Shown piece by piece: positions 11,538 through 59,987 of a stretch of DNA of 64,000 bases. Position 1 is the first letter of the stretch; every line of letters begins with the position of its first letter. The position numbers and the translations under genes are program-made. Location: contig CP166615.1 in assembly GCA_041937175.2 (NCBI GenBank), forward strand, positions 768,001 to 832,000. The letters are read 5' to 3'. The stretch is from Limnothrix sp. BL-A-16 (lineage in GTDB: Bacteria; Cyanobacteriota; Cyanobacteriia; CACIAM-69d). The notes below the pieces were generated by a model. It worked only from the letters and a program-made list of their open reading frames with translations. It was not told where the DNA came from and did not search any database.

Positions 11538-12776
11538 TTGGGGGAATCAGCCGTTAAGTTATGGCTACGATCGCATAGTTCAGATGGTGTGTTAGCAGTG
11601 AATCGCAATTGGTGGATCGCAGGCACGGTCGCGTTTAGCTTAGGCCTTGGCATTGGGGTTGTGACCGATCGCCAATGGCAAAAGGCCCTCGGTCTCGGAG
11701 CCATTGCCCTGTCCGGTGCAGCGGCGATCACCGCCTTAACGCCCGATCGCTCCCGATCGCAGCCCGAACCCTGGGATCCTCGCCTCAGGGAAACCATCTC
11801 CCCCGAATATGCCAACTGGTTACCCAGCGATCATCGTCCACCAACCATCAACCCACCTCTCAGCAGCGACCTCGCCAGCGCCTTGCGCGTGGAGGTCGAT
11901 CGCCTTGAACGAGAACTAGAACAATCCCTCACCCGTAAGCAGCAACTCGAAGCGGTGATTGGTGTTCTGCGTAAGGAAAAAGAAGCAATTCAGTCCCAAA
12001 TTGATGAAGGCAGCGGCCGAACGCAGAAGATTTATCGTGTTTTGGCTGATTTGGAAACCCAGCGCCAGCAACTCGAAGACAAAATTGCCCAGCATCAAAC
12101 TCAACTAGCCGATCTTGACAGTCGCAAGGCCAGCATGGAGCGCGACCTAACTCAGGTCGATCGACTGCGCGCCGAAACCATCGCCCTAGAACAAGAGGCC
12201 CAAGAACGCCAAGCCAACCTCAGCAACCTCCGCCAGCGAGAACAAACCCTCCTCAACAACTGCACCAGCCTTGAGGCCCAAGCGGCCGAACTCAGCGAGC
12301 GCACGGCCACCCTCACGCGATCGCTCGCTGACACCATGCGAGAACAGCAGAGCGTAGAAATGACCCTGCAACAACAGCAAACGGCCCTCGAACAAATTCG
12401 CACCCAAGCCGATGCCCATCACCGACGGCGCTACGAACTTCGCCAACAGATCGAAACCCTGCAACAGCAATACGACGGATTGCCCTCCACCGTCGCTAAA
12501 CTGCAGGCAGAGCACGATCGACTCGTGGCCCTCTGCCGCGATCGGCAAGTGGAATTAAACCAAATTCACGAAAACATGGCCCAAGCTCGTGCTCAGCAGC
12601 AAGCAATCCAAGCCGAGTTACAGCGCGATCGCCAAGCACTCCTGCGGGTCAACCACAAAAAACAGCAGGAAACCAACTCCTTACGGCTGTGGCTCAGCTT
12701 TCTTCTCAAAGACCTGTCCGCCAACGAGCCACCATCACCCAAGCACCGCCGCGCCCCCCGCAAACCCAACGCCTAG
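11538..12776 (+). CDS. Membrane-anchored long coiled-coil protein
   Basis: Two N-terminal hydrophobic segments, then about 280 aa of Q/E/L heptad-rich sequence; start uncertain. Confidence 0.7.
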   Translation: MGESAVKLWLRSHSSDGVLAVNRNWWIAGTVAFSLGLGIGVVTDRQWQKALGLGAIALSGAAAITALTPDRSRSQPEPWDPRLRETISPEYANWLPSDHRPPTINPPLSSDLASALRVEVDRLERELEQSLTRKQQLEAVIGVLRKEKEAIQSQIDEGSGRTQKIYRVLADLETQRQQLEDKIAQHQTQLADLDSRKASMERDLTQVDRLRAETIALEQEAQERQANLSNLRQREQTLLNNCTSLEAQAAELSERTATLTRSLADTMREQQSVEMTLQQQQTALEQIRTQADAHHRRRYELRQQIETLQQQYDGLPSTVAKLQAEHDRLVALCRDRQVELNQIHENMAQARAQQQAIQAELQRDRQALLRVNHKKQQETNSLRLWLSFLLKDLSANEPPSPKHRRAPRKPNA

Positions 12777-13012
12777 TGGCAAGTCAGGTAAACTCGCTGA
12801 AGAATTGGACTGTAACTGCTGAACTCACAGCTCAAACCGGCGAACTCATGAACCAAACTTGAGCTTGGCATTAAATTAATGTTGTTAATATTGATCTAGC
12901 ATTGATCTTGAATTTTTTTATTTTGAGTTCGTTTTGAATTTATTTTGATGGTTTACGAATATTGCTCTGGATTCGCTGCCAACCCCCCTGACTAGTATCT
13001 GATCAAAAAGAA

Positions 13013-14425
13013 ATGAGCATTTTTTTGATTACAAAGGAAGCAACAGCAAAACTCAAAGAGGTTTATAACCGCAATCCTCTCTTTCTCTTAGAACACATTT
13101 TCGTTGTTTTCTTTCTCATTCGCTACTCTCTTGGCATTCTAGAGGTTATTTTAACCAACGGAGCCAGTGAAGGTGATGGGCAAGATATCTTATCTTTTAA
13201 TTATAAACCGAGCGTAGCGCTCTATTTTTTAAACTATATCGTCACTAATATTTTATTAATTATGCGATGGAAAAAAGTCATTGTGATGCTAATGGCAGCT
13301 CCCACAGTTGTTTTTCTCATTGCCATGTTTCCCGTTTCATTTCTTTGGTCGATCGAGCCTTCCAAGACCCTCAATGCCTCGATCGCCATGATTGGTACCT
13401 TTCAATTTGGTCTTTATCTCGCCACTCGCTATTCCCTTAGGGATCAAGTTCGCATCTTGGGAGTGATGTTTGGTATTTCCCAGGTGCTCTGTTTCGTCTT
13501 TGGTGTTGCCCTGCGTAAATATGGCGTGATGAGCGCAGTCCATGCTGGCAAATGGCGCGGCATCTATTCCCACAAAAATCAACTAGGCAAAATGATGGCC
13601 CTCGCTTCCGGGGTCTTCGTGCTGCTTGGTATTTCTGAAACCTATCGACGATATCGCTACTTAGCTTGGTTTGGCCTCATCACTGCCTTTGTTCTCATTC
13701 AGCTCTCTGGCTCCAAAAGTCCTTTTATTAATATTGGATTGCTGATTGCCATGAGTGCATTTGGTCAGATTTTTCGTCTACCACATAAATGGATGGTTCG
13801 CGCCCTAATTTGGTCAGCCGTCATTGGAATTAATCTGTTTTTCTATTGGGATGACATCGTAATCAATATCCTAGGCGCGTTAGGTAAAGATGCTAGCTTA
13901 ACAGGCAGAACAGATGTTTGGGAATTTGTGATTGATCGGATCAAAGATCGACCAATCTTAGGTTATGGCTTTGGCACATTTTGGAATGGCTTAGATGGGA
14001 AGTCAGCCTATGTTGTTCGTGCAGTTCGGTGGCCTGTTCCTGATGCGCATAATGGATTTTTGGAAATATGTATTGATTTAGGTCTTGTGGGCTTAGCAGT
14101 TTACGTTTGGGTTGTTTTTCAAACAATTATCAAAGCCATAGCGCTCATTCGCGCCACCAGAAGCAATGAATACATCTGGGTTCTAATGTTCTTTACCTAT
14201 AGCACAGTTGCTAATCTTTCAGAAAGCTCCCTGCTGTTTCGTAACTCCTTACCCAGTGTTATTTTTGCTGCCGTCTCCTTCACAGTGGCAGCAAACTATT
14301 ACCAGCAATTTAAAGTCAACCCTTCCAATTTTTCCACTCAAATTTCGGAACAACCTTTGCCCGAGGCCTCTGAGTTACTATCGGATGAGCCAAGCGTTGG
14401 AATTGAATATAAATCCAATCCTTGA
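13013..14425 (+). CDS. O-antigen ligase/Wzy-like polymerase
   Basis: Multi-TM; WRGIYSHKNQLG, LTGRTDVW, RPILGYG, AHNGFLE. Confidence 0.9.
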   Translation: MSIFLITKEATAKLKEVYNRNPLFLLEHIFVVFFLIRYSLGILEVILTNGASEGDGQDILSFNYKPSVALYFLNYIVTNILLIMRWKKVIVMLMAAPTVVFLIAMFPVSFLWSIEPSKTLNASIAMIGTFQFGLYLATRYSLRDQVRILGVMFGISQVLCFVFGVALRKYGVMSAVHAGKWRGIYSHKNQLGKMMALASGVFVLLGISETYRRYRYLAWFGLITAFVLIQLSGSKSPFINIGLLIAMSAFGQIFRLPHKWMVRALIWSAVIGINLFFYWDDIVINILGALGKDASLTGRTDVWEFVIDRIKDRPILGYGFGTFWNGLDGKSAYVVRAVRWPVPDAHNGFLEICIDLGLVGLAVYVWVVFQTIIKAIALIRATRSNEYIWVLMFFTYSTVANLSESSLLFRNSLPSVIFAAVSFTVAANYYQQFKVNPSNFSTQISEQPLPEASELLSDEPSVGIEYKSNP

Positions 14426-14885
14426 TCACGAGAAAAATTGAAAGCACTTTAAAAAATTCAAAATGTTTATTTGTCATCAAATTCTTTAAGAAAAATTCAC
14501 TTTCTGAGATTTACAATTCCTTCTTGGTCAAAAATAAAAAATTCTCAAAAATTCTCAAAAAAATTCTATAAAGCTAAATACAAATCAATTTCGACAATGC
14601 AGTATAATGATAATAGGAATCTTCGATTTATAGTGAATGTCTAAAGCATAATTTGAGATTTCGCTTAAACATTGCTTCAAGCTTACAAAGCTTCAAGCCT
14701 ATAAATAGAATAGTTCATTTCATGATTGAGAAACTTTTTCCTGATTCAAATAAAATCAATAAGAATAATCGTCCAGTGCTTTGTTTTTAACTGTCTTGTT
14801 TTTACAAGAACCCTTTGAGTAAGAATTTTGCTTGAAGACACTCAAAAAATCGATAACCTACTCTGCTTTCAACACCAATCATCCC

Positions 14886-15767
14886 ATGCAAATCGATAAT
14901 TCTCAAAACCTATCCTCCTTTGCCATCATTACACCAAGCTATGATCAAGACTTCCAGCGCTGCCAACTTCTCTGCAAAAGTATCTCGCGCTTTGTTCAGC
15001 CACCTTTCAAGCATTATATTGTTGTAGAAAAGCGTGACCTGAAACTGTTTTCAAAACTCAAAAATCAACATACAGAAATTATTATTGTTCAAGATTTGCT
15101 TCCTTTTTGGCTTTTTAGGCTACCCAAAATCCGAAAAACTTGGTTCAGCCTAAAGGGAGTTCCGGTGCGTAGCTGGATTATGCAGCAAATTTCCAAAATC
15201 GCACTTGCGAGAGCAATTGATGAAGAGATTTCAGTATTTTTGGATTCGGATGAGATGTTTATCCGAGACTTTGGGATTTCGAACCTGATCAAAAACAACC
15301 AAGTTCGATTCTATGCTGAGCCAGAGGGCAACCCGATCGGAATGGATACGCCGCATCAACATTGGCATCAATCGGCTAGTCGATTATTGGGTTTAGCGGC
15401 AACACCCATGCCAGCCCCCGACTACATTGCTGACGTGATCACGTGGAAACGAGAAAATGTAACAGCAATGTGTCGTCACATTGAACGCATTTATCATCAA
15501 TCATGGTTCGAGGCAGTTTCAAAAACATGGCATTTTTCTGAATACACGCTCTATGGAACCTATATTGATCGGGTGCTTCAAGACCGGAGCGGCCATTACT
15601 GGGATCCAACCAAAATTCTCAATTCCTATTACGATCCCAATGTGATGACTGAAGAAGAGTTGCGCAACTTTGTTAACTCAACTCGACCTGAGCATGTTGC
15701 CATCATGATTTCTGCTAAGGCTAAAATAGCAGTTGACCGATACGCGAGCTTGTTAGAGCTTGAATAG
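14886..15767 (+). CDS. DUF6492-like putative glycosyltransferase
   Basis: ITPSY..DFQRC.LLC.SI, WIMQQISK, DSD motif, FSEYTLYG. Confidence 0.7.
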   Translation: MQIDNSQNLSSFAIITPSYDQDFQRCQLLCKSISRFVQPPFKHYIVVEKRDLKLFSKLKNQHTEIIIVQDLLPFWLFRLPKIRKTWFSLKGVPVRSWIMQQISKIALARAIDEEISVFLDSDEMFIRDFGISNLIKNNQVRFYAEPEGNPIGMDTPHQHWHQSASRLLGLAATPMPAPDYIADVITWKRENVTAMCRHIERIYHQSWFEAVSKTWHFSEYTLYGTYIDRVLQDRSGHYWDPTKILNSYYDPNVMTEEELRNFVNSTRPEHVAIMISAKAKIAVDRYASLLELE

Positions 15768-16060
15768 GCTGGTTGCTAACGGTGTGTAATCGATCGCTCT
15801 TCATGATGGGTGGAGGGTAACTGTTGAGCGAGTCGAAGAAGCCAGCATCCGATCAAAAACCCTCGGGCTACCTTCAATGATCCGGTTACTGACCCTAAAT
15901 CTCGGTAAAGGATGAAAATTTGGCAAGGTTGGTGGGGGCCTGCTGCCAAAGAAGTTGGTCAGTAGTGATGTTCTTGATCCTGAGGCTGCCAAAACTAGCT
16001 GACTATTTGGGGGCATCCCCCTTGTTCTGTTTTTGATCAATATAGACGGGCAATAGTTCC

Positions 16061-25788: not shown

Positions 25789-27069
25789 CTATGACTTAAT
25801 CGGCAGTTGAATCCGAAATTCAGCGCCTTGTCCTGGCTCCGATTCAACGGTCAAACTGCCACCATGTTTATCAACTACGATTTGTTGGGCGATCGCGAGA
25901 CCTAATCCAGTCCCTTTGCCCACAGATTTTGTAGTGAATAAGTGATCAAAAATTCTCGACTTTACCTCTGCACTCATCCCTTTACCATTATCTTGAATAG
26001 CAATTTGTACCTGATCGCTCACCAAAGTCGTGCTGATCGTAATCCGTTGAGGATTAACTTCTAATTCCTTGAACGATCGCCCCTGGGCCAGCTCGTCAAA
26101 CATATCGATCGCATTAGCCAGGATATTCATAAACACTTGGTTGAGTTGCCCCGGAAAGCAATCGATCGGCGGTATTTCACCATAGTCAGTGATTACCTCG
26201 ATCTCCGGTCGGTTCGCATTCGCCTTGAGCCGATATTTTAAGATTAATAGAGTGCTATCAATCCCTTCATGCAAGTTTGCACTGACCTTATATTCCGTAT
26301 CCGCCCGGGAAAAAGTACGCAAGCTGGTACTAATCGATTTGATGCGATCGGTTGCCCCTTGCATGGAATTGAGTAATTGGGGCAAATCTTCGCAAATATA
26401 TTCTAGGTCGATATCATTCGTGTGATCTTGAATTGGAGAAACTGGACTAGGATAATACTGCTGATAAAGGGCTAAATGGTTGAGCAAGTCTTGCACATAG
26501 TCTCTACCATTATTAATGCTGCCATTTAAAAAACTAATCGGATTATTAATTTCATGGGCAACCCCAGCTACTAACTGTCCTAGGGCAGACATTTTTTCGC
26601 TTTGGATTAATTGCATCTGGGAGGCTTTGAGTTCAGTAGTTTTTTGAGCTACCTGTTGCTCTAGAGTTTGGGCCAAATACCGAAGCTGGAGATGGGTTTT
26701 TACCCGAGCTAAAACTTCCTGCTCCTGGAAGGGTTTAGTAATGTAATCTACGGCTCCTAGATCAAGGGCCCGAACTTTGCTATTGAGATCAGAAAGAGCA
26801 GTCATGAAAATTACAGGAACATCAGCCGTTCGAGAATTTGCTTTCAGACGGCGACAGGTTTCAAAACCATCAATACCCGGCATCATCACATCTAGTAAAA
26901 TTAAGTCTGGTAGCTTTCGTTCTACTTGCTGCAAGGCCCGTTCGCCGCTAGTAGCGATCGCTACATCAAATCCCATATCACTTAAAGTGTCAGACATTAC
27001 ATCTAAATTACTGGGAATGTCATCTACAATTAAGATTAAGCCCGTCACCACATTTGCTGCCATATTCAT
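25789..27069 (-). CDS. Receiver-histidine kinase hybrid
   Basis: REC (IVDD, LDVMMP, KP) followed by HEINNP H-box, NQVFMN, DNGKG, GTGLGL. Confidence 0.93.
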   Translation of the reverse strand: MNMAANVVTGLILIVDDIPSNLDVMSDTLSDMGFDVAIATSGERALQQVERKLPDLILLDVMMPGIDGFETCRRLKANSRTADVPVIFMTALSDLNSKVRALDLGAVDYITKPFQEQEVLARVKTHLQLRYLAQTLEQQVAQKTTELKASQMQLIQSEKMSALGQLVAGVAHEINNPISFLNGSINNGRDYVQDLLNHLALYQQYYPSPVSPIQDHTNDIDLEYICEDLPQLLNSMQGATDRIKSISTSLRTFSRADTEYKVSANLHEGIDSTLLILKYRLKANANRPEIEVITDYGEIPPIDCFPGQLNQVFMNILANAIDMFDELAQGRSFKELEVNPQRITISTTLVSDQVQIAIQDNGKGMSAEVKSRIFDHLFTTKSVGKGTGLGLAIAQQIVVDKHGGSLTVESEPGQGAEFRIQLPIKS

Positions 27070-27136
27070 GGCGCTTTCCTCCTTTTTAGCTTTGCTAATA
27101 CTTTTCTAGGCTTTTAGAAAAATCCTATTAAAACTC

Positions 27137-29950
27137 TTAGGAGCTATCTTTGGAGTTGAGAGACTGATGAATTAGTTGTTGAATAAATACTTCTATCTTC
27201 TCTGATTGAAATTGTTTAGCTAAATGATTAATATGGTTAACAAATGGTTGATATCGCTGCTCTTGCTCAGCAATTTTGGTTGTCAATTGAGTTAATTTTT
27301 TGAAACGTCCTTCTTGAACTAACTCTAAAAGTAATTGTAAATCCTTAATATCTGGAGTCTCAAAGAAAGGAAGCTTAGAAGATGTTGGGCTAGATTCTTT
27401 AGCGGCCGCTTCTTCCTTTTGACTATTATTCCAAGTTAATTCTAGATATTTGGTGAGAATATCAAATAACTCTTGACTATGCACAGGTTTCGCTAAAAAG
27501 TCATCCCCGCCTGCATCAATACTCATTTGCTGATCTGCTTGGGAGACGGAAGCTGAGGATACGATAAGTTTCAAGTGTTTCAAGTCTTCCGCTTGTCGTA
27601 CTTGCTTTAGCATGGCAAAGCCATCCATCACGGGCATCGCTAGATCAGTAATTACAAGGTCTGGATATAGCTGTCGCATCTTTTCTAAGCCATCTTGACC
27701 ATGCTCCGCTTCAGCAACAATAAATCCCAGAGGCTCCAAAAGATTAACAATTACCGACCGATTTTCCCAACAGTCATCTACGATCAGAATACGCTTCCTA
27801 TCTCCTTCATAGCCAGTAATATTTTCCCCCCTGCTCTGAAATCGTATCCAATCATCATGTAAGGGTAGGGCTACTTCAAAGAAAAATTCACTGCCAACTC
27901 CTAGCTGACTATTTACCTGAATTTCTCCTCCCATAAGTTGAACAATTTGCTGACTAATAGCAAGCCCTAGCCCCGTACCTTCCGACTGTCGGCTTTTATC
28001 TCCCACCTGCTCAAAAGCTCGGAAGAGTTTTTGCACATCCGCTGTCGCAATACCTACCCCTGTATCAATGACAGCAAAGCGTAAATGAGCAAGTTCTTTA
28101 GTCGTTAGCTGATAATTAACTCGAAAAGTGATCCCACCTCGATCGGTAAATTTAATGGCATTACTCAATAAATTAATTAATACTTGACGAAGACGCTTTT
28201 CATCAACAATTACCCCGTTGGGTAAGTTGACATCAGGTTCGTAGTGAAAGCTAATATTTTTCTGTTGCGCCCGAATTTGAGAAATTTCTACCACCCCTTG
28301 AAGAAGAGCAGGTAAATGCACAGCTTTGGGAGCAAGTTCCAATTTACGAGCTTCAATTTTAGAGATATCCAAAATGTCATTAATTAGGGTGAGTAAATGA
28401 GAGCCACACTGATGAATAATATTAACTCCGTGGCGCTCCTTTTCAGGAATAGCCTTGGAGCGACCTAAAATTTGAGCATAGCCGAGAATACCATTAAGGG
28501 GAGTCCGCAGCTCATGACTCATGTTGGCAAGAAATTCACTTTTAGCCTGATTGGCGTTATCAGCTAATTGTTTAGCTACTTGTAATTCTTTAGTTCGTTC
28601 TGCCACTCGCTGTTCGAGTTCTGCGTTCGCATTTTCCAGAGAGCTAAAAGCCGATTGAAGTTGATGACTCATGGCATTGAAAGTTTGCCCCAATTTGTTA
28701 AGTTCTTGAATATTCTCCAGTTGAATTCGTTGATGAAGGTTGCCTTTGCTAATTTCTTGAGAAGCTTGGTTTAAGCGATCAATGGGACGAAGAATCCAAC
28801 GGGATGTGTAAATACCAGAGGTGACAGCGATTGCCAGAGCCAGAAGACATAGGAAGATGGTGATACGGGTATTTTCATTAATCTGCCCCATAAAATCTGC
28901 TTCGGGGACAATAACGACAATTAACCAATCTAGCCCTCGTCCATCTTGAAAAGGGGTGACTTGAATAAATTGTTGCTCTTTATTAAAAGAAAAATTGGAC
29001 TCTTGGATCGTAGAAATTTCCTGAAATGAAGAGAAGGAACTATTTAAATACTTAGCTGTAGCTTGAATTAGAGGTATTTGACTGTTAGTCGCTTTTAATC
29101 TTTTTGGTTTTTTGTTTTTGTCAAATAAGAAAGGTCTTTCTTTGGTAGAACTAGCAACTATTAAGCCACTACGTTCCATAATAAAAACCTGCCCCGAAGG
29201 ACTGATTTTTAACTCCTGAAGAAACTGGCTGAGGCGCAGAAGGCTAACATCAACCCGCAGCGCGCCAATAAACTTATTTCGATCATCATAGATTGGTTGC
29301 ACCGCAGGAAGGGCAATGTCATGGGGAGGCAACTGCCACACGAAAATATCTGCCCAAGCCAGTTTATTTTCCTTTAGTGCTGTTTTATACCAAGGTCGAG
29401 TTCGAGCATCAAAATTTGGAGTTATCGAAACTAGCTTTTGACGATTTCCTTGAGCATCAATTTCATAGGTAGAATTTCCTCTTGCTACATTATCTACGCT
29501 ACCGACTAAAACATTGGAAGTTCCATTTAAGGAGAACTGTTTGCCCGCCCATACATACTTACCTTCTTGATTTCCGTAGGCAATGATTGTTGCACTATCA
29601 AAGCGTTGAGCTTGTTGCCAAAAATGACGCTCTAAAGATAATAAATCTTGAAAATTAATTTGTTCAAGCCGAGCACTATCAACGTTAATCTGATTGATCA
29701 AAATAGGAGTAGCAATAAAAGATCGAAGATGATCTTGGATTCGATTTGTTACTTCATTTCGTAGCTTGCTTGCAACATCATTAACAGCTTTTTGACCATT
29801 CTGGATTGAGAGATAACTAGTCAAACCTACAGCAGTAAAGATTTGGATGACGAAGGGAGCAACAAGGATCAACCTCAAAGGGATAGATCGACGATGTTGA
29901 ACTCTGGCTGTTTTAGGAACTTCCACTTTTGAAGATTGGTTGGTTAACAT
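27137..29950 (-). CDS. Cache-HAMP hybrid sensor histidine kinase with receiver
   Basis: Two [11 protein letters not shown] Cache, [27 protein letters not shown] (DLAMP). Confidence 0.93.
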
Positions 29951-30537
29951 AGGAAAATACTTTGCAAGTTTCAAGTAAATGATGTTGTGTAATAATGAAA
30001 TGAATTTTAATTATAATAGTCCGTCATCTTTAATCTGATGCTCAGAGCGTTATCAAGAGTGCTTCTGTCAAAGGCTATTAACAATTTCGGCGTAAGAATT
30101 ATAACTATCAGTATATAAACTTTTTTAAAGAATGAGGGTAAACCCATGAAAAGCGAATATCACCTTGTGAATTTTGCCGAGCGGTAAAAATTTGGCTTGA
30201 TCATAGCCTTGTTTTCTGAGCTTATGGCAAACTGCACAATTGATCTGCTAAATAACTAGTGCTTAACATGACTACCTTAAGACTTCCCAGTGTCTTTACG
30301 ATCGATTCGTTACTGGTGGAGATCATGCAAGACTGTGGCTAATTTCAGAGTAACTCTGAGTTCCTCTGTCTAGTTTAGTGCTTGTTTCTGGAGATATTGA
30401 TTGAGAGACAATCCCTTTTTGTCTTCCATTGCAGGCACATGGCTATTATAAAGCTCTCTCTCGATGATGTAGCAACTCTAAAGCGCTTAATATAGTGCTA
30501 GGTACAGATTTAACCTTGCTTTAACTTATATGCTTTA

Positions 30538-52332: not shown

Positions 52333-53827
<1,495 letters not shown>

Positions 53828-53910: not shown

Positions 53911-55318
53911 CTACCCCAGTTGATAGCACTTTTGATCCAGCCATATTGTCTGTTCTTGTAGTTGAGCGATCGACTCCGGCAACTCCCTCAGTTGGTTGTC
54001 TTGGAGATCAAGACTTGTCAGATTTTTCAGTTGAAGGATGACTGCTGGTAGCTCAGTTAGTTGGTTGCCACTGAGGTAAAGCTTGGTCAAATTTTGCAGT
54101 TGCCCAAGCTCTGCTGGTAGCTCAGTTAGTTGGTTGCCATCAAGGTGAAGCTCAGTCAGATTTTGCAGTTGTCCAAGCTCTGCCGGTAGCTCAGTTAGTT
54201 GGTTGCCATCAAGGTGAAGCTCAGTCAGATTTTGCAGTTGTCCAAGCTCTGCTGGTAGCTTGCTTAGTTGGTTTCTATCGAGGTCAAGCTTGGTCAGATT
54301 TTGCAGTTGACCGATCGCTGCCGGTAGCTCCCTCAGCGGGTTATAGCTGAGGTCAAGTTTAGTCAGATTTTGCAGTCGTGTGATTGCCGCTGGTAGCTCC
54401 CTCAGTTGATTGAAGTTGAGAAACAGCGCGATCAAGTTTTCCAATTGCCCAAACTCCGCCGGTAGCTTGCTCAGTTGGTTGTAGCCGAGACACAGCTCTT
54501 TCAAATTTTCCAGTTGCCCAAACTCCACCGGTAGCTCGCTCAGTTGGTTGCCACTGAGGTAAAGCTCGCTCAGATTTTGCAGTTGCCCAAACTCCGCCGG
54601 TAGCTTACTCAGTCGGTTTCTATCGAGGTCAAGCTTGGTCAGATTTCGCAGTTGCCCAAACTCCGCCGGTAGCTTGCTCAGTTGGTTGTTCGAGAGGTCA
54701 AGCTTGGTCAGATTTCGCAATTGCCCAAACTCCGCCGGTAGCTTGCTCAGTCGGTTGTAGCGGAGGTCAAGCTTGGTCAGATTTCGCAGTTGCCCAAACT
54801 CCGCCGGTAACTTACTCAGTCGGTTGTAGCTGAGAGACAGCTCTTCCAAATTTCGCAGTTGCCCAAACTCAGTCGGTAGCTCGCTCAGTTGGCTGTAGCT
54901 GAGCAACAGCTCGATCAAATTTTCCAGTTGCCCAAACTCTGCCGGTAGCTCGCTCAGGTGGCGGTTGCTGCTGAGAAACAGCTCTTCCAAATTTCGCAAT
55001 TGCCCAAACTCTGCTGGTAACTTTCTCAGTTGGTTGGAAGCGAGATTAAGCAGTCTCAGATTTTGTAGTTGGCCAATTTCTGCTGGTAGCTCTCCTAATT
55101 GGTTGTCGCTGAGCACCAGCTCGATCAGATTTCTCAGTTGACCAATTTCTGCTGGTAGCTCTCTCAAAGACCACCCGACGTGTAGCTCAGTCAGATTTTG
55201 CAGTTGACCAATTTCTGCTGGTAATTGCTCTAGGCGGCCCCCGCCCCCAAATAGCCAACTGTGTCTGGCCCTTCGCTTTGGCACGCTCCAGTAGCGCCAA
55301 CAACTTCGCCCGTTCCAT
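53911..55318 (-). CDS. LRR-only protein B2 (18 LRRs); apparent 2-nt frameshift near 55233
   Basis: 23-aa LxxLPxExGQLxNLxxLxLxxN repeats; paralogous ATG at 55318 is out of frame because two bases are missing relative to B1; in-frame GTG at 55323. Confidence 0.85.
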
Positions 55319-55463
55319 GCCACCGCCCCCTCACATCACCGCTCCAATTGTAAGAGCCTGTCCCCTACAGAATGTTGGCGACATGGGAGCAACGCCGCAG
55401 AGAAACTAGTAAGGGGTGGGATTTTCCTGCCCCTTTTTTGTGTTTTTTAGGAAGCGTTATGGC

Positions 55464-55613
55464 TCAAAAGCTGGGTTCACCGAAGGGGTTGTCTTCCCCG
55501 GGGGGCAGGGCTTCGCGGGCTTCGAGGCTGCCGCGCACCCCTTCGACAATGACGTTAAAGGCGGCGGCGGCGATCGCTCCGGGTAAACCAGCGCTGGCCA
55601 GGGCGATCGACAC
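55464..55613 (-). pseudogene. Collapsed paralog of LRR gene A (last 47 codons only; possible 49-aa sORF)
   Basis: IALASAGLPGAIAAAAFNVIVEGVRGSLEAREALPPGEDNPFGEPSF* matches the gene A C-terminus; preceded by a copy of the gene A upstream region. Confidence 0.75.
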
Positions 55614-55700
55614 AGCTCCAATTGTAGAAGCCTATCCCCAACATCCCGTAGGGGACATGAGAGCAATGCCGCCAAGAAGCTAGAAATGGGTGGGATTTTC

Positions 55701-57110
55701 CTAGCCCAGTTTCCAGCAATGGTGATCCAGCAATATCGTCTGTTCTTGCAGTTGAGCGATCGACTCCGGCAACTCAGTCAGTTGGTTGTCTTGGAGATCA
55801 AGACTTGTCAGATTTTTCAGTTGAAGGATGACCGCCGGTAGCTCAGTCAGTTGGTTGCGGCTGAGGTAAAGCTTGGTCAGATTTTTCAGTTGCCCAAGCT
55901 CTGCCGGTAGATCAGTTAGTTGGTTGCCATCAAGGTGAAGCTCAGTCAGATTTTGCAGTTGCCAAAACTCAGCCGGTAGCTCAGTTAGTTGGTTGCGGCG
56001 GAGGTCAAGCTTGGTCAGATTTTTCAGTTGAAGGATGACTGCCGGTAGCTCAGTCAGTCGGTTGCGGTGGAGGTCAAGCTTGGTCAGATTTTTCAGTTGC
56101 CCAAACTCCACTGGTAGCTCACTTAATTGGTTGCCGCCGAGGTAAAGCTTGGTCAGATTTTGCAGTTGCCCAAACTCCACCGGTAACTCACTCAGTTGGC
56201 TATATTCGAGAAACAGCTCTTCTAAATTTCGCAACCGACCAAACTCCGCCGGTAGCTTACTCAGTCGGTTGTAGCGGAGGGAAAGCGATGTCAGATTTTG
56301 CAGTTGCCCAAACTCCGCCGGTAGCTCGCTCAATCGGTTCTTCCAGAGGTCAAGCTCGCTCAGATTTTGCAGTTGCCCAAACTCCACCGGCAACTCACTC
56401 AGTTGGTTGTCCGCGAGGTCAAGCTTGGTCAGATTTCGCAGTTGCCCAAACTCCGCCGGTAGCTCAGTCAGGCGGTTGCTGCTGAGGTCAAGCTTGGTCA
56501 GATTTTGCAGTTGCCCAAACTCCGCCGGTAGCTCAGTCAGGCGGTTGCTGCTGAGGTCAAGCTTGGTCAGATTTTGCAGTTGCCCAAACTCCGCCGGTAA
56601 CTTACTCAGTCGGTTGTAGCTGAGAGACAGCTCTTCCAAATTTCGCAGTTGCCCAAACTCAGTCGGTAGCTCGCTCAGTTGGCTGTAGCTGAGCAACAGC
56701 TCGATCAAATTTTCCAGTTGACCAAACTCTGCCGGTAGCTCGCTCAGGTGGCGGTTGCCGCCGAGAAACAGCTCTTCCAAATTTCGCAATTGCCCAAACT
56801 CTGCTGGTAACTTTCTCAGTTGGTTGGAAGCGAGATTAAGCAGTCTCAGATTTTGTAGTTGGCCAATTTCTGCTGGTAGCTCTCCTAATTGGTTGTCGCT
56901 GAGCACCAGCTCGATCAGATTTCTCAGTTGACCAATTTCTGCTGGTAGCTCTCTCAAAGACCACCCGACGTGTAGCTCAGTCAGATTTTGCAGTTGACCA
57001 ATTTCTGCTGGTAATTGTTCTAGGGCCGGCCCCCGCCCCCAAATAGCCAACTGTGTCTGGCCCTCCGCTTTGGCACGCTCCAGCAGCGCCAACAACTTCG
57101 CCCGTTCCAT
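55701..57110 (-). CDS. LRR-only protein B1 (18 LRRs)
   Basis: MERAKLLALLERAKAEG N-cap, 18 LRRs, short C-cap. Confidence 0.92.
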   Translation of the reverse strand: MERAKLLALLERAKAEGQTQLAIWGRGPALEQLPAEIGQLQNLTELHVGWSLRELPAEIGQLRNLIELVLSDNQLGELPAEIGQLQNLRLLNLASNQLRKLPAEFGQLRNLEELFLGGNRHLSELPAEFGQLENLIELLLSYSQLSELPTEFGQLRNLEELSLSYNRLSKLPAEFGQLQNLTKLDLSSNRLTELPAEFGQLQNLTKLDLSSNRLTELPAEFGQLRNLTKLDLADNQLSELPVEFGQLQNLSELDLWKNRLSELPAEFGQLQNLTSLSLRYNRLSKLPAEFGRLRNLEELFLEYSQLSELPVEFGQLQNLTKLYLGGNQLSELPVEFGQLKNLTKLDLHRNRLTELPAVILQLKNLTKLDLRRNQLTELPAEFWQLQNLTELHLDGNQLTDLPAELGQLKNLTKLYLSRNQLTELPAVILQLKNLTSLDLQDNQLTELPESIAQLQEQTILLDHHCWKLG

Positions 57111-57255
57111 GCCACCGCCCCTTCACATCACCGCTCCAATTGTAAGAGCCTGTCCCCTACAGAATGTTGGCGACATGGGAGCAATGCCGCAGAGAAACTC
57201 GCAAGGGGTGGGATTTTCCTGCCCCTTTTTTGTGTTTTTTAGGAAGCGTTGTGGC

Positions 57256-58587
57256 TCAAAAGCTGGGTTCGCCAAAGGGGTTTTCGTCGTCGCCGGGGGG
57301 CAGTGCGCCACGGTTTTCCAGGCCCCCACGCACCCCTTCGACTACCACGTTAAAGGCGGCGGCGGCGATCGCTCCGGGTAAACCAGCGCTGGCCAGGGCG
57401 ATGCCAACGGCGCTTTTGGCGAGTTCGGGGCCGGCGTTTTTGAAGGCGGCCCAGAGGGTTTGTTGCCATTCCAAATCTTTGAACGTGACTTGGGTTTGCA
57501 GTTTGGCGGTGGTGGTTTGTTCGTCGATTTTCAGTTGTTTCAGCAGCTCCTGAATTATCTGTTGAGCGGCTTCGGGGGTTTGGGGGGCTTGGTAGTTGTT
57601 AACGGTTTTGTCGCCTGCTACGTTGTCGCCGCTGCCGTGGTGGTTTTGGGTGATGTTGGTGGTCATATTCAGTGTTTGATTTCGATTAACAAATTTATCG
57701 ATCTTGACTACTATTTTATGAAAAAGAGAAGAATGATCATCTGCAAAAAAGCTGCTATTTCCTAAGGATTCTTGTGATTTGCTAAAAGAAATGGCTTTAA
57801 GATTTTGATCGCTGAAGTAAAGATCTAGAATTGTTCTTAAATCACCTGGCTCTTCCAAACCTAAAATTTCCGATGAAATAGGAATTGGATTACCGCGTAA
57901 GTCTAGCCTCTCAAGATTGATCAATTCTCGAATAAATGTTGGTATATGGTTCAATTGGTTATAAGCGAGATGTAATTCTGCTAGATTTTGCAAACACGTT
58001 ATATCAATTGGCAGAAAATCTAGTTTGTTGTTGTTAAGATGAAGCCCTACTAAATTTTTAAGTTGAAAGATCTCGATTGGTATTTGAATCAGGTTTGCAT
58101 TTGTAAGAGAAAGCCAATTTAGTCTTTTTAGGTTCACGATTTCTGGTGGTAATTTTGTTATTTGCTTACCTCCAAGGATTAGTGTTTTCAGATTTTGTAA
58201 TTGGATGATTTCCAGTGGAAACGAATTCAGTGAATTGTGACAAAGTTCAAGTGTGCTGAGATTTTGTAGTTGGCTAATTTCTGCTGGCAGTGAACTCAGT
58301 GGGTTACTCCAGAGTTCAAGTGTGACTAGACTTTTCAGTTGACCTATTTCTGCTGGTAGTTGACTTAGCTGATTGAAGTCGAGGGCAAGTGTTTTCAAAT
58401 TGTGCAGTTGACCAATTTCTACTGGTAATTGACTCAACTGGTTGCCGCCGAGGTTCAACGATCTCAGATTGTGCAGTTGACCAATTTCTACTGGTAATTC
58501 TTCCAATCCCTTCCATGAAAGATCCAGCTCCGTCCAGCCTTCCGCCTTTGCCCGTCCCAACAGCGCCAACAACTCCGCCCGTTCCAT
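57256..58587 (-). CDS. LRR protein A (Roco-like N-terminus, no Roc-COR) with C-terminal helical tail
   Basis: AKAEGWTELDLS N-cap, about 9 LRRs, LDLRGNPIPI..EILG..PGD...ILD.YF, no P-loop, then QNHHGSGDNVAGDK tail. Confidence 0.85.
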   Translation of the reverse strand: MERAELLALLGRAKAEGWTELDLSWKGLEELPVEIGQLHNLRSLNLGGNQLSQLPVEIGQLHNLKTLALDFNQLSQLPAEIGQLKSLVTLELWSNPLSSLPAEISQLQNLSTLELCHNSLNSFPLEIIQLQNLKTLILGGKQITKLPPEIVNLKRLNWLSLTNANLIQIPIEIFQLKNLVGLHLNNNKLDFLPIDITCLQNLAELHLAYNQLNHIPTFIRELINLERLDLRGNPIPISSEILGLEEPGDLRTILDLYFSDQNLKAISFSKSQESLGNSSFFADDHSSLFHKIVVKIDKFVNRNQTLNMTTNITQNHHGSGDNVAGDKTVNNYQAPQTPEAAQQIIQELLKQLKIDEQTTTAKLQTQVTFKDLEWQQTLWAAFKNAGPELAKSAVGIALASAGLPGAIAAAAFNVVVEGVRGGLENRGALPPGDDENPFGEPSF

Positions 58588-58640
58588 GCCACCGCCCCCT
58601 CACATCACCGCTCCAATTGTAGAAGTCTATCCCCCACATC

Positions 58641-58858
58641 CCGTAGGGTGCATGGGAGCAAACCCCAATGGTCACGAAATGATTAATTTGTTTTCCCATG
58701 CACCGTGGATTGAACGCCGCCCAACCGATCAATGTTGTTGAATGTGTGATGGGTTGCGGTGTGTGGAAATGATTGTTGAATGCGTGACGGGTTGCGGTGC
58801 ATGGGAGAAGAATGATGATGGTCGTTTGTTTCCGAGCGTGCTCCCATGCACCCTACGG
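58641..58858. repeat. REPIN-like element (two inverted GTAG REP hairpins)
   Basis: Perfect 20-bp IR CCGTAGGGTGCATGGGAGCA at 58641-58660 and 58839-58858; each end forms a GGTGCATGGGA..TCCCATGCACC hairpin; spacer has a duplicated TTGTTGAATG.GTGA.GGGTTGCGGTG. Confidence 0.75.
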
Positions 58859-58929: not shown

Positions 58930-59987
58930 CTAGCGTCCCCAAATCCAATGCAAGAGCAGAATCAACAAATACACCACCGCCAAAATGGCCAAACCATAGA
59001 ACAGAATCGATCGCTCGTCCTTGGGGCTGGGGAGCGAGGGATCCGCCTCCACTGGACAAAACCGCACCAAACTGCGATTCACAAAGGCCTCGCCTAACAC
59101 AGGATTGCTGAAATAGGCCAACAGTTGCTTACCCAACGTGGTTTCAATGCCCAGCCCATCACGGGACACACCCACGCGGGAAATGCCCCCATAGGAAAAC
59201 GCAGCCAGCTCTCGCACCGGTTGCTGGCTCCAAAAAGAGGGCAGGGCGATCGCGCAGAGTCGGGTACTGGTCACCAGCAACACCGCCGGCCCGTCATCGA
59301 TGCGCACGGAAACCACGTCAATGAGCTGTTCTTCCGGTGCGTTCAGGAAATACACCAAAAATTCTGCCAGCTTGGGAATCGCGCCCTGCATCGGAAAACC
59401 CAGTTGGCCCGTTTCCGCCAGCCAATCTTCATAGACCTTTTCCGGCTGAATCAGGTCGATCGCCTCTTCGGGGTTGGGATAGGTCGGCTCAGGATAAATC
59501 GGCGGGAGTTGGGGCGCGGGGGCTGGGCTGGGCGCGGGGCCGGCGCAACAAACCCGGTATTCCCCGGATCGTAGGTGGCGCTGATCTCCGAGGGGGCGGG
59601 GGAAACGCTGGGGGCGATCGTGTAGCTGGGCGAACCGGTCAGGCCCAGAGCGCTCAACGGGGGCGTGGCCAAGGACATGCCAGAGCCGTCATTGGCCAGG
59701 TAGAGGGCATCAGTCCAGGTGGGTGCGCCGGCCCCGGCCGCCCAACCGGAGACCCGCACCACGCCCACGGGTTCCACCTTCAGGATGTTCATGCCCTTGC
59801 GAACAAAGGTCATCAGCGCCGGGCGATCGGGGGCGCGATCGGCCCCCAACAGATTCAAAATCAAGCAATTGCCATCAAGGCTGACTTCCACCGCAATCCC
59901 CGCCGCTTGTAACTTGCGGTTCATGAGGGTGGCGATCGCCTCTACATTGCCCTGCCGGGCGAGCAGTAACAATTCCGTCTGAGACAT
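58930..59987 (-). CDS. Hypothetical protein split by a 1-nt frameshift (ORFs 59451-59987 and 58930-59391)
   Basis: ARQGNVEAIATLMNRKL N-terminus; one extra C near 59537 gives APAPAPSPAPAPQLPPIYPEP.. reading through into the downstream ORF with its C-terminal TM. Confidence 0.7.

Follow-up and report, generated by a model that had tools for sequence, protein, structure and literature searches.

Module turnover and two variable codons per repeat in twin leucine-rich-repeat genes beside thiC of Limnothrix

The stretch of DNA analysed here, referred to as the window, comprises 64,000 nt of the genome of the freshwater cyanobacterium Limnothrix sp. BL-A-16 (contig CP166615.1, positions 768,001 to 832,000; G000:C1:768001-832000), which is assembled to 4.56 Mb in 2 contigs and is 100% complete. 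It contains three genes of leucine-rich repeats (LRRs), B3, B1 and B2, which in the list of open reading frames (ORFs) lie head to tail on the minus strand and are convergent with thiC on the plus strand (Table 1). A first-pass annotation, made from the letters alone, had singled out B1 and B2 as twins with conserved end repeats and a variable central binding surface, and had proposed a diversifying receptor repertoire loosely analogous to the variable lymphocyte receptors (VLRs) of lampreys. Here we describe the anatomy, duplication history and mosaic divergence of these genes, the turnover of their modules between lineages, the codons at which the modules differ most, and the modelled fold.

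Tandem Repeats Finder reports period-69 arrays of 16.2 and 16.3 copies in the twins, with scores of 862 and 934. When modules are delimited at the LP anchors, both genes have the same layout, namely an N-cap, 18 modules (of 22, 23, 23 and 24 codons, then fourteen of 23) and a 21-residue C-cap. Pfam LRR_8 is matched at E 5e-65 by B1 and 3e-92 by B2, solely LRR families exceed the cut-off, and no NACHT or NB-ARC NTPase was found in either gene with Pfam; the assignment of 18 LRRs and no effector domain to each twin is thus borne out by the module split and by Pfam. NCBIfam models of Xop, internalin and other effector families were considered and set aside, all of them scoring far below their cut-offs (XopAC, 382 vs 450 bits) through shared LRRs only.

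We refer to the two codons before the conserved Asn of each module as xx. In modules 7-15 the xx residues read SS, SS, AD, WK, RY, EY, GG, HR and RR in B1, and RY, SN, DR, SG, GY, NF, SY, DR and DG in B2; the module split reproduces exactly the lists first given for the two genes. Modules 1-6 of B1 and B2 differ by 3 substitutions in 414 nt. Two of these fall in module 4, where B1 has GGC GGC and B2 has AGC AGC, and the third is synonymous, so that the near-identity of these modules, with non-synonymous change confined to the xx codons of module 4, was correctly perceived. The same is true of the adjacent module duplications, with 0 nt of difference between B1.7 and B1.8 and 1 nt between B2.15 and B2.16. 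The last repeats had been called near-identical as well, but they are 91.0% identical (243/267 nt), at a synonymous divergence (dS) of 0.21.

Three close lineages have three different central module arrangements. Some match to the genes was obtained in 19 of 41 genomes (G000 included), and among the 41 only Limnothrix redekei (G002) has an ortholog with high-identity ends, at 88% and 87%. There, a single syntenic gene of 421 aa and 16 modules lies beside thiC, without B3 and without a twin. B2 modules 12-14 (NF, SY, DR) correspond to modules 9-11 of this gene (NF, SH, RR), and B1 has no counterpart of them. Between B1 and B2 themselves, nearest-module matches are non-colinear (B1.11 with B2.7, B1.9 with B2.8 and B1.10 with B2.10). 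Strains were compared through the contigs of four runs (X1, X2, X12 and X16), which leave parts of the locus without cover; in three of the four (X2, X12 and X16) a contig joins position 54648 back to 54442, a junction of 207 nt and three modules that is absent from the window. The non-colinear matches, the 16-module ortholog and this junction bear out the proposed duplication, loss and reordering of modules, and the fixed repeat order in close strains that had been named as a refutation is not seen (16 modules in G002 vs 18 here, and the 207-nt junction). Exact out-of-register matches measure 30-93 nt within each gene and 30-50 nt between genes. Match lengths of 30-93 nt are sufficient for homologous recombination in bacteria.

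Wider searches gave no second ortholog. A protein database search with B1 listed LRR proteins that are longer and more distantly related, with no close ortholog among them, and a scan of genome contigs gave 4 loci, of which that of Limnothrix redekei is the sole ortholog. A metagenome scan returned 260 relatives, with a best segment identity of 63% among the 78 loci kept, and no further ortholog. Where the present genome has B3 and B1, Limnothrix redekei has a 270-aa gene of unknown family (L026:8535-9347, plus strand); the content of the stretch between thiC and the next conserved gene thus differs from one species to the other.

Variation between modules is concentrated at the xx codons. When all pairs among modules 7-17 of both genes are compared, the proportion of non-synonymous differences (pN) is 0.60 and 0.63 at the two xx codons, compared with 0.37 and 0.30 at the next highest positions and 0 at the invariant Leu, Asn and Pro positions. 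Pooled over all pairs, pN(xx) is 0.61, whereas the scaffold has a proportion of synonymous differences (pS) of 0.34 and a pN of 0.14. The contrast persists in 14 non-overlapping nearest pairs, chosen on total distance and leaving out B2 modules 1-6 (converted copies) and the 22- and 24-codon modules, in which xx pN is 0.44 and scaffold pS is 0.25 (one-sided Fisher P = 0.003); the claim that variation is concentrated at the two codons before Asn thus stands. As an individual case, B2.7 and B2.9 differ by 6 nt within the two xx codons and by 1 nt elsewhere. Even in the recent block of modules 1-6, two of the three substitutions lie in xx codons, which make up 36 of the 414 nt (binomial P = 0.021). 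In orthologous modules matched with the G002 gene, the rate of change at xx is four times that at the other non-synonymous sites (P = 0.0007); omega (the ratio of non-synonymous to synonymous change) of the scaffold is 0.28. Over the whole gene, omega is 0.42, vs 0.01 in flanking genes.

The sequence between B1 and B2 records how the twins arose. The relic lying there has 55 codons, and its final 51 can be aligned to the terminal part of B3 with 83% amino acid identity; nucleotide identity to the B3 tail is 87.9% over 141 aligned bases. The relic is followed by a second copy of the B3-to-B1 spacer that is 96.6% identical to the first, and in alignments the upstream element designated copy b is the variant that precedes B3 and that precedes the congener's single gene; no further copy of the upstream element was found elsewhere in the genome. 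Since the relic and the upstream-element copies lie between and around the twins, a two-gene unit of B3 and an LRR-only gene was duplicated, and in the simplest history the second B3 then lost most of its length by deletion. In run X1, one contig matches the relic to position 55607 and then continues for 109 letters, of which 30, on the gene strand, are B3-like coding sequence, which suggests that some strains may still keep the second B3. The relic itself retains an in-frame GTG just behind a GGAG in copy b, from which a putative 49-residue hydrophobic mini-protein could still be made.

Divergence between the two units is mosaic. Identity amounts to 87.9% in the relic, 98.3% (655/666) in the block that runs from the B3 stop across the spacer and through module 6, 79.9% in modules 7-15 compared by index and 91.0% in modules 16-19. 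Between B1 and B2, dS rises from 0.01 in modules 1-6 to 0.21 in modules 16-19, the second value being close to those between G000 and G002 for thiC (0.16) and for another neighbour (0.22). The near-identical 5' end is accordingly a recent conversion-like block. Because the block includes the non-coding spacer, it does not reflect a functional partition of the protein, and the conserved ends are not a design feature.

B1 is intact, and in B2 a lesion had been overlooked. Aligned with B1, B2 has a 2-nt deletion just after position 55234, seen as a 2-column gap. From the conserved ATG (55316-55318), B2 runs into a stop after 43 codons; its 47-aa open frame aligns with residues 1-29 of B1. A GTG lying 5 nt further upstream is the sole start that keeps the long frame open, and this start replaces the helical cap by ~30 out-of-frame residues, a stretch that happens to be stop-free. 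Contigs of runs X12 and X16 have an extra GC behind 55234, and the congener gene of G002 is intact from its ATG; since X12, X16 and G002 retain an intact frame, the B2 lesion is either specific to this genome or an assembly error. B2 is probably either a recently formed pseudogene or a variant whose N-cap is altered.

An AlphaFold2 model of B1, built on a 3-row alignment, has a predicted local distance difference test score (pLDDT) of 93 and a predicted template-modelling score (pTM) of 0.88. It consists of a cap helix (residues 2-15) followed by a three-residue strand and a short helix per module. The strand occupies module positions 11-13, and the xx residues come next, just before the Asn. 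When this model was compared with solved structures by Foldseek, it superposed on SHOC2 with a template-modelling score (TM) of 0.92-0.93, a root-mean-square deviation of 2.0 A and 36% identity. Leptospira LIC11098 was found at 46% identity and the LRR domain of the Chlorobium Roco protein (5il7) at TM 0.63, and the best solved chain by sequence is 4u08 (E 1.6e-112). B1 and B2 are thus predicted to be curved LRR solenoids with one strand per repeat on the concave side.

The database relatives of B1 and the composition of B3 point to Roco proteins. Many of the database relatives of B1 are LRR-Roc-COR proteins, and some of these, with 55-59% identity, are among the top ones. B3 has ~9 LRRs, a linker of the type found between LRR and Roc in Roco proteins and a rare tail domain of ~145 aa; its Pfam matches are to LRR only. 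The stretch past the last LRR resembles the LRR-to-Roc linker of P0124, and no Pfam family was matched by the tail, which had 21 matches at E<=1e-3 among 1.84 billion representatives. Elsewhere, this tail stands alone or behind COR-B in the Roco proteins P0124 (LRR-Roc-COR-A-COR-B) and P0127, and it is characterised by a conserved GSGDNVAGDK stretch, helices, a Gly/Ala-rich hydrophobic segment and an NPF-like end. An Atlas search with the tail gave scores of 0.84-0.86, all below the lead level of 0.9. A match of B3 to GapS6a, at 19 bits vs a cut-off of 90, was taken as chance or low complexity. With Pfam, no Roc or COR domain was detected in B1, B2 or B3, and no COR-A match anywhere in the genome. 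The likeness of linker and tail supports common descent of these parts with Roco proteins, and not Roco membership, and we infer that B1, B2 and B3 descend from a Roco-type LRR protein that lost Roc-COR.

The contrast between xx and scaffold is not peculiar to the twins. Among the loci of relatives, 14 of 17 have at least five modules of 23 codons, and pN(xx) exceeds scaffold pS in 7 of these 14. The 78 metagenome loci, which were fetched by the patterns PAEIGQLQ and ELPAEIGQ and are not independent, include 63 with at least six 23-codon modules, and the same inequality holds in 38 of the 63. When only arrays with a mean module identity of at least 0.70 are considered, 30 of 31 of these motif-picked, non-independent loci show the contrast. 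Reshuffled, xx-variable repeats are accordingly a common habit of this LRR class and not a special receptor system, which takes from the twins the status of a special repertoire that had been proposed for them.

Taking these results together, we think it rather probable that the locus reflects concerted evolution and module turnover in a Roco-derived, SHOC2-like binding protein, and not a VLR-like repertoire. B1 and B2 would be cytoplasmic solenoids of 23-residue-type LRRs of the bacterial Roco kind, without a catalytic domain, and their role is probably that of a SHOC2-like binding scaffold. The concave face, formed by the beta strand together with the xx residues, is where a protein partner would sit. 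The unit of B3 and an LRR-only gene would have been duplicated beside thiC, the second B3 being mostly deleted thereafter. Ordinary homologous recombination between the out-of-register matches of 30-93 nt would then duplicate, delete and reorder the central modules, would keep the module scaffolds alike (concerted evolution) and would recently have copied ~670 nt, spacer and modules 1-6, from one twin to the other. The xx codons would escape this homogenisation, being either unconstrained or favoured to differ, and specificity would therefore drift quickly. In this strain, B2 would just have lost its normal start frame.

A number of observations weigh against this account. In eight B2 modules matched with the G002 gene, omega(xx) is 1.33 and not above 1 (P = 0.32), and between the 3' modules of B1 and B2 it is only 0.38; diversifying selection, as inferred in the first-pass annotation, and an excess of non-synonymous change at xx are therefore not shown. 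Moreover, pS inside the xx codons is also 0.61 and equals pN, and the contrast is thus one of hexamer vs scaffold and not of non-synonymous vs synonymous change. No synonymous rise was detected within three codons of xx to either side (0.354 vs 0.333; bootstrap -0.08 to 0.12), which counts against a simple linked retention of old alleles, since that would predict a flanking gradient. Twelve xx hexamers recur in at least two modules, some of them across genes or species, a pattern more suggestive of old module types being used again than of new mutations. Beside thiC, G001 (same genus) and G003 (same family) have no LRR gene and no remnant of one, and because the gene is missing there and one copy is broken here, it is possibly dispensable. 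Finally, no independent contig from the four runs bridges the junction of B1, relic and B2. The data fit a concerted evolution of the scaffold that the xx hexamer would escape, and as far as the codons go, "unconstrained" and "selected to differ" fit them equally.

Much of this would also follow from neutral instability of repeats in a dispensable gene, with xx as unconstrained surface positions, no selection for diversity and no recognition function that benefits from it. An omega(xx) of 1.33 that does not differ from 1 in matched orthologous modules, the equality of pS and pN inside xx, the absence from G001 and G003 and the frameshift of B2 all speak for such an explanation, and a whole-gene omega of 0.42 vs 0.01 in the flanks suggests relaxed constraint. 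We nevertheless hold it to be unlikely: scaffold non-synonymous sites are constrained (omega 0.28), so that the fold is maintained, both long frames are open across 1.4 kb, divergence has a sharp boundary at the xx hexamer with no flanking gradient, and the contrast in 30 of 31 highly self-similar arrays suggests a maintained property. A programmed diversifying receptor, as in lamprey VLRs or pilin-type antigenic variation, in which the frameshifted B2 would serve as silent donor for an expressed B1, is a far less probable alternative. It would account for a silent-looking copy that neighbours an intact gene and shares with it a recent conversion-like block of 670 nt, for module order that varies between close lineages and for hypervariable concave positions. 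However, the block shared by the twins consists of conserved modules and spacer and not of the variable centre, and the B2 lesion is strain-specific, the frames of X12, X16 and G002 being intact. The search of the own genome was limited in its matches to B1, B2 and B3 plus one weak match (E 5.9e-4), that is, three genes of the type and, unlike VLRs, no bank of donor LRR cassettes in 4.56 Mb. Reverse transcriptase, transposase, integrase and deaminase families had no match among the 45 window ORFs scanned. With only three genes of this type in the genome and one twin frameshifted, a VLR-like repertoire is not supported.

The least probable explanation, which we regard as highly improbable, is that the twin layout or the 2-nt deletion is an assembly error caused by near-identical repeats. 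Besides the lack of an independent contig across the B1, relic and B2 junction, no contig covers 55234 in the near-identical run X1, and one of the neighbours (58930-59987) is likewise in two pieces when compared with its congener counterpart, possibly a sign of indel errors. On the other hand, the genome is 100% complete and in 2 contigs, and with 20% divergence in the centre and 9% at the 3' end the twins are neither a collapsed nor a doubled copy. In addition, contigs of run X1 agree without a single difference with B1-specific modules, with the relic and with the B3-B1 spacer, although X1 may be the source sample. The target of a diversity-generating retroelement was considered separately and rejected: there is no reverse transcriptase in the window ORFs (the family was not searched genome-wide), no template copy exists in the genome, and the variable codons have, by eye, no adenine-specific pattern.

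The closest parallels for concerted evolution with module turnover come from other repeat proteins. Passages of Paoletti, Saupe and Clave 2007 (PMC1805685) describe concerted evolution of fungal WD repeats together with positive selection at four surface positions, and parts of the preprint by Dyrka et al. 2020 extend high internal repeat conservation to the WD and tetratricopeptide (TPR) repeats of bacterial NOD-like receptors (NLRs) and state that prokaryotic NLRs do not carry LRRs. As these passages present them, the repeats of fungal NLRs (het-d/het-e WD) are near-identical tandem units exchanged within and between paralogs, variable in number, with few hypervariable positions on the binding surface and a pseudogene among the paralogs. 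The twins have such features of NLRs and STAND-like proteins in their alike units, in their number (18 vs 16 in the congener) and in few hypervariable surface positions. They differ from the fungal and bacterial NLRs so described in being LRR and not WD, TPR or ankyrin (ANK) repeats and in lacking NACHT/NB-ARC and an effector domain, and from the fungal ones also in that positive selection is not demonstrated for them in orthologous comparisons. In sections of Zambounis et al. 2012 (PMC3341825), Ectocarpus LRR-ROCO genes are reported to have shuffled LRR exons. These are likewise Roco-type LRR units that are shuffled, and there the LRRs carry signs of diversifying selection and gene birth and death is high. 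As portrayed there, that system is eukaryotic exon shuffling, one LRR being one exon, and Roc-COR is kept, whereas the Limnothrix twins are bacterial, their 69-nt modules are contiguous, and neither these genes nor the genome as a whole contains Roc-COR. Passages of Kaur et al. 2020 (PMC7159879) have LRR once, "hypervariable" four times (none about LRRs) and a few mentions of Roco or COR. A literature search found such repeat behaviour reported for the WD and TPR repeats of bacterial NLRs and no description of it for bacterial LRR arrays, which does not prove that none has been published.

Among solved structures, SHOC2 (PDB 7tvf, 7tvg) resembles the twins as an LRR-only solenoid of ~20 repeats that, by the entry titles, binds MRAS and PP1C as a scaffold; it differs in being eukaryotic, slowly evolving and single-copy. 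The closest solved sequences, at 44-46% identity, are those of Leptospira interrogans LIC11098, LIC12759 and LIC10831 (PDB 4u08, 4u09, 4u06). Like the twins, these proteins are bacterial, LRR-only and composed of very regular 23-residue repeats. They are exported proteins of a pathogen, whereas B1 and B2 have no hydrophobic N-terminal signal, and in the B1 model the first 15 residues form the cap helix. Bacterial Roco proteins (Chlorobium tepidum, PDB 5il7) have the same LRR type, and the linker and tail of B3 are common to P0124 and P0127; they differ in that Roc and COR are missing from B1, B2 and B3, and the TM to 5il7 is only 0.63.

By analogy, we tentatively raise a broader idea, about which we remain doubtful, that the 23-residue 'PAEIGQL'-type LRR arrays of filamentous and other bacteria may be a prokaryotic counterpart of fungal NLR repeats and brown-algal ROCO exons, that is, recognition surfaces kept recombinogenic by concerted evolution and quickly changeable in specificity. 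If true, this would extend to bacterial LRRs the mode of specificity evolution of fungal NLRs and algal ROCOs, combining repeat shuffling, scaffold homogenisation and few free surface residues, and at the Limnothrix thiC locus the process could be followed from strain to strain, through three module orders in as many close lineages, a recent conversion block and a newly arisen pseudogene. As it stands, the locus reveals neither a new immune mechanism nor a ligand. With three genes beside thiC and strain-to-strain differences, it is a small and tractable locus for the measurement of rates.

Table 1. Positions of the LRR genes, of associated elements and of thiC in the window
Feature	Position	Strand	Description
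thiC	52436..53827	+	Pfam ThiC_Rad_SAM, E 1.6e-194; convergent flank; same neighbour in congener, fixes synteny
B2	53911..55323	-	Twin LRR-only reading frame; long frame open only from GTG
B2 variable central modules 7-15	54184..54804	-	Modules 12-14 match congener gene modules 9-11
Relic-B2 spacer (upstream-element copy c)	55319..55463	-	96.6% identical to copy a; includes hairpin 55411-55435
B3' relic	55467..55631	-	55 codons without own start, between B1 and B2
Upstream-element copy b (promoter-like)	55611..55707	-	Directly after B1 stop; 80% over 97 nt (blastn)
B1	55701..57110	-	Intact LRR-only gene, 469 aa; helical N-cap, 18 LRR modules, C-cap
B1 variable central modules 7-15	55974..56594	-	Module split; 79.9% identity to B2 by index
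Conversion-like block, B1 side	56589..57256	-	B3 stop through spacer to end of module 6; B2 partner 54799-55464
B3-B1 spacer (upstream-element copy a)	57111..57255	-	Includes hairpin 57203-57227
B3	57256..58587	-	Third LRR gene, 443 aa, upstream of twins
B3 upstream element	58588..58661	-	81% identical to copy a over 74 nt

Profile scans of the window show the neighbouring genes to be housekeeping genes (thiC, Dus, aldolase, SepF, P5C reductase and D-Ala-D-Ala dipeptidase), and the best match to the PADLOC models of defence proteins was no better than E 0.0067. A promoter scan gave 3 sites vs 3.3 in shuffles and a terminator scan 6 vs 7.3, with no excess in either case. Identical 11-pair hairpins lie at 55411-55435 and 57203-57227, ~30 nt past the stops of the B3 relic and of B3, respectively. 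In both, a T-run follows on the plus strand, in the manner of a terminator, and an A-run precedes on the gene strand; the folding of these duplicated hairpins is no better than that of shuffles (z -1.2 to -1.6).

Upstream of B3, the region 58930-59987 (minus strand) contains ORFs of 153 and 178 aa that correspond to a single 394-aa ORF in the congener (L026:9359-10543). The frame changes within a Pro-rich linker, which is due either to another recent lesion or to an indel introduced in assembly. Elsewhere in the window, positions 12001-16000 and 26001-30000 have a G+C content of 0.40-0.47, compared with ~0.55 in the remainder. The former holds an O-antigen ligase-like gene, a DUF6492 gene and other sugar-related genes, and the latter holds hybrid histidine kinases; both low-G+C stretches may be acquired DNA.

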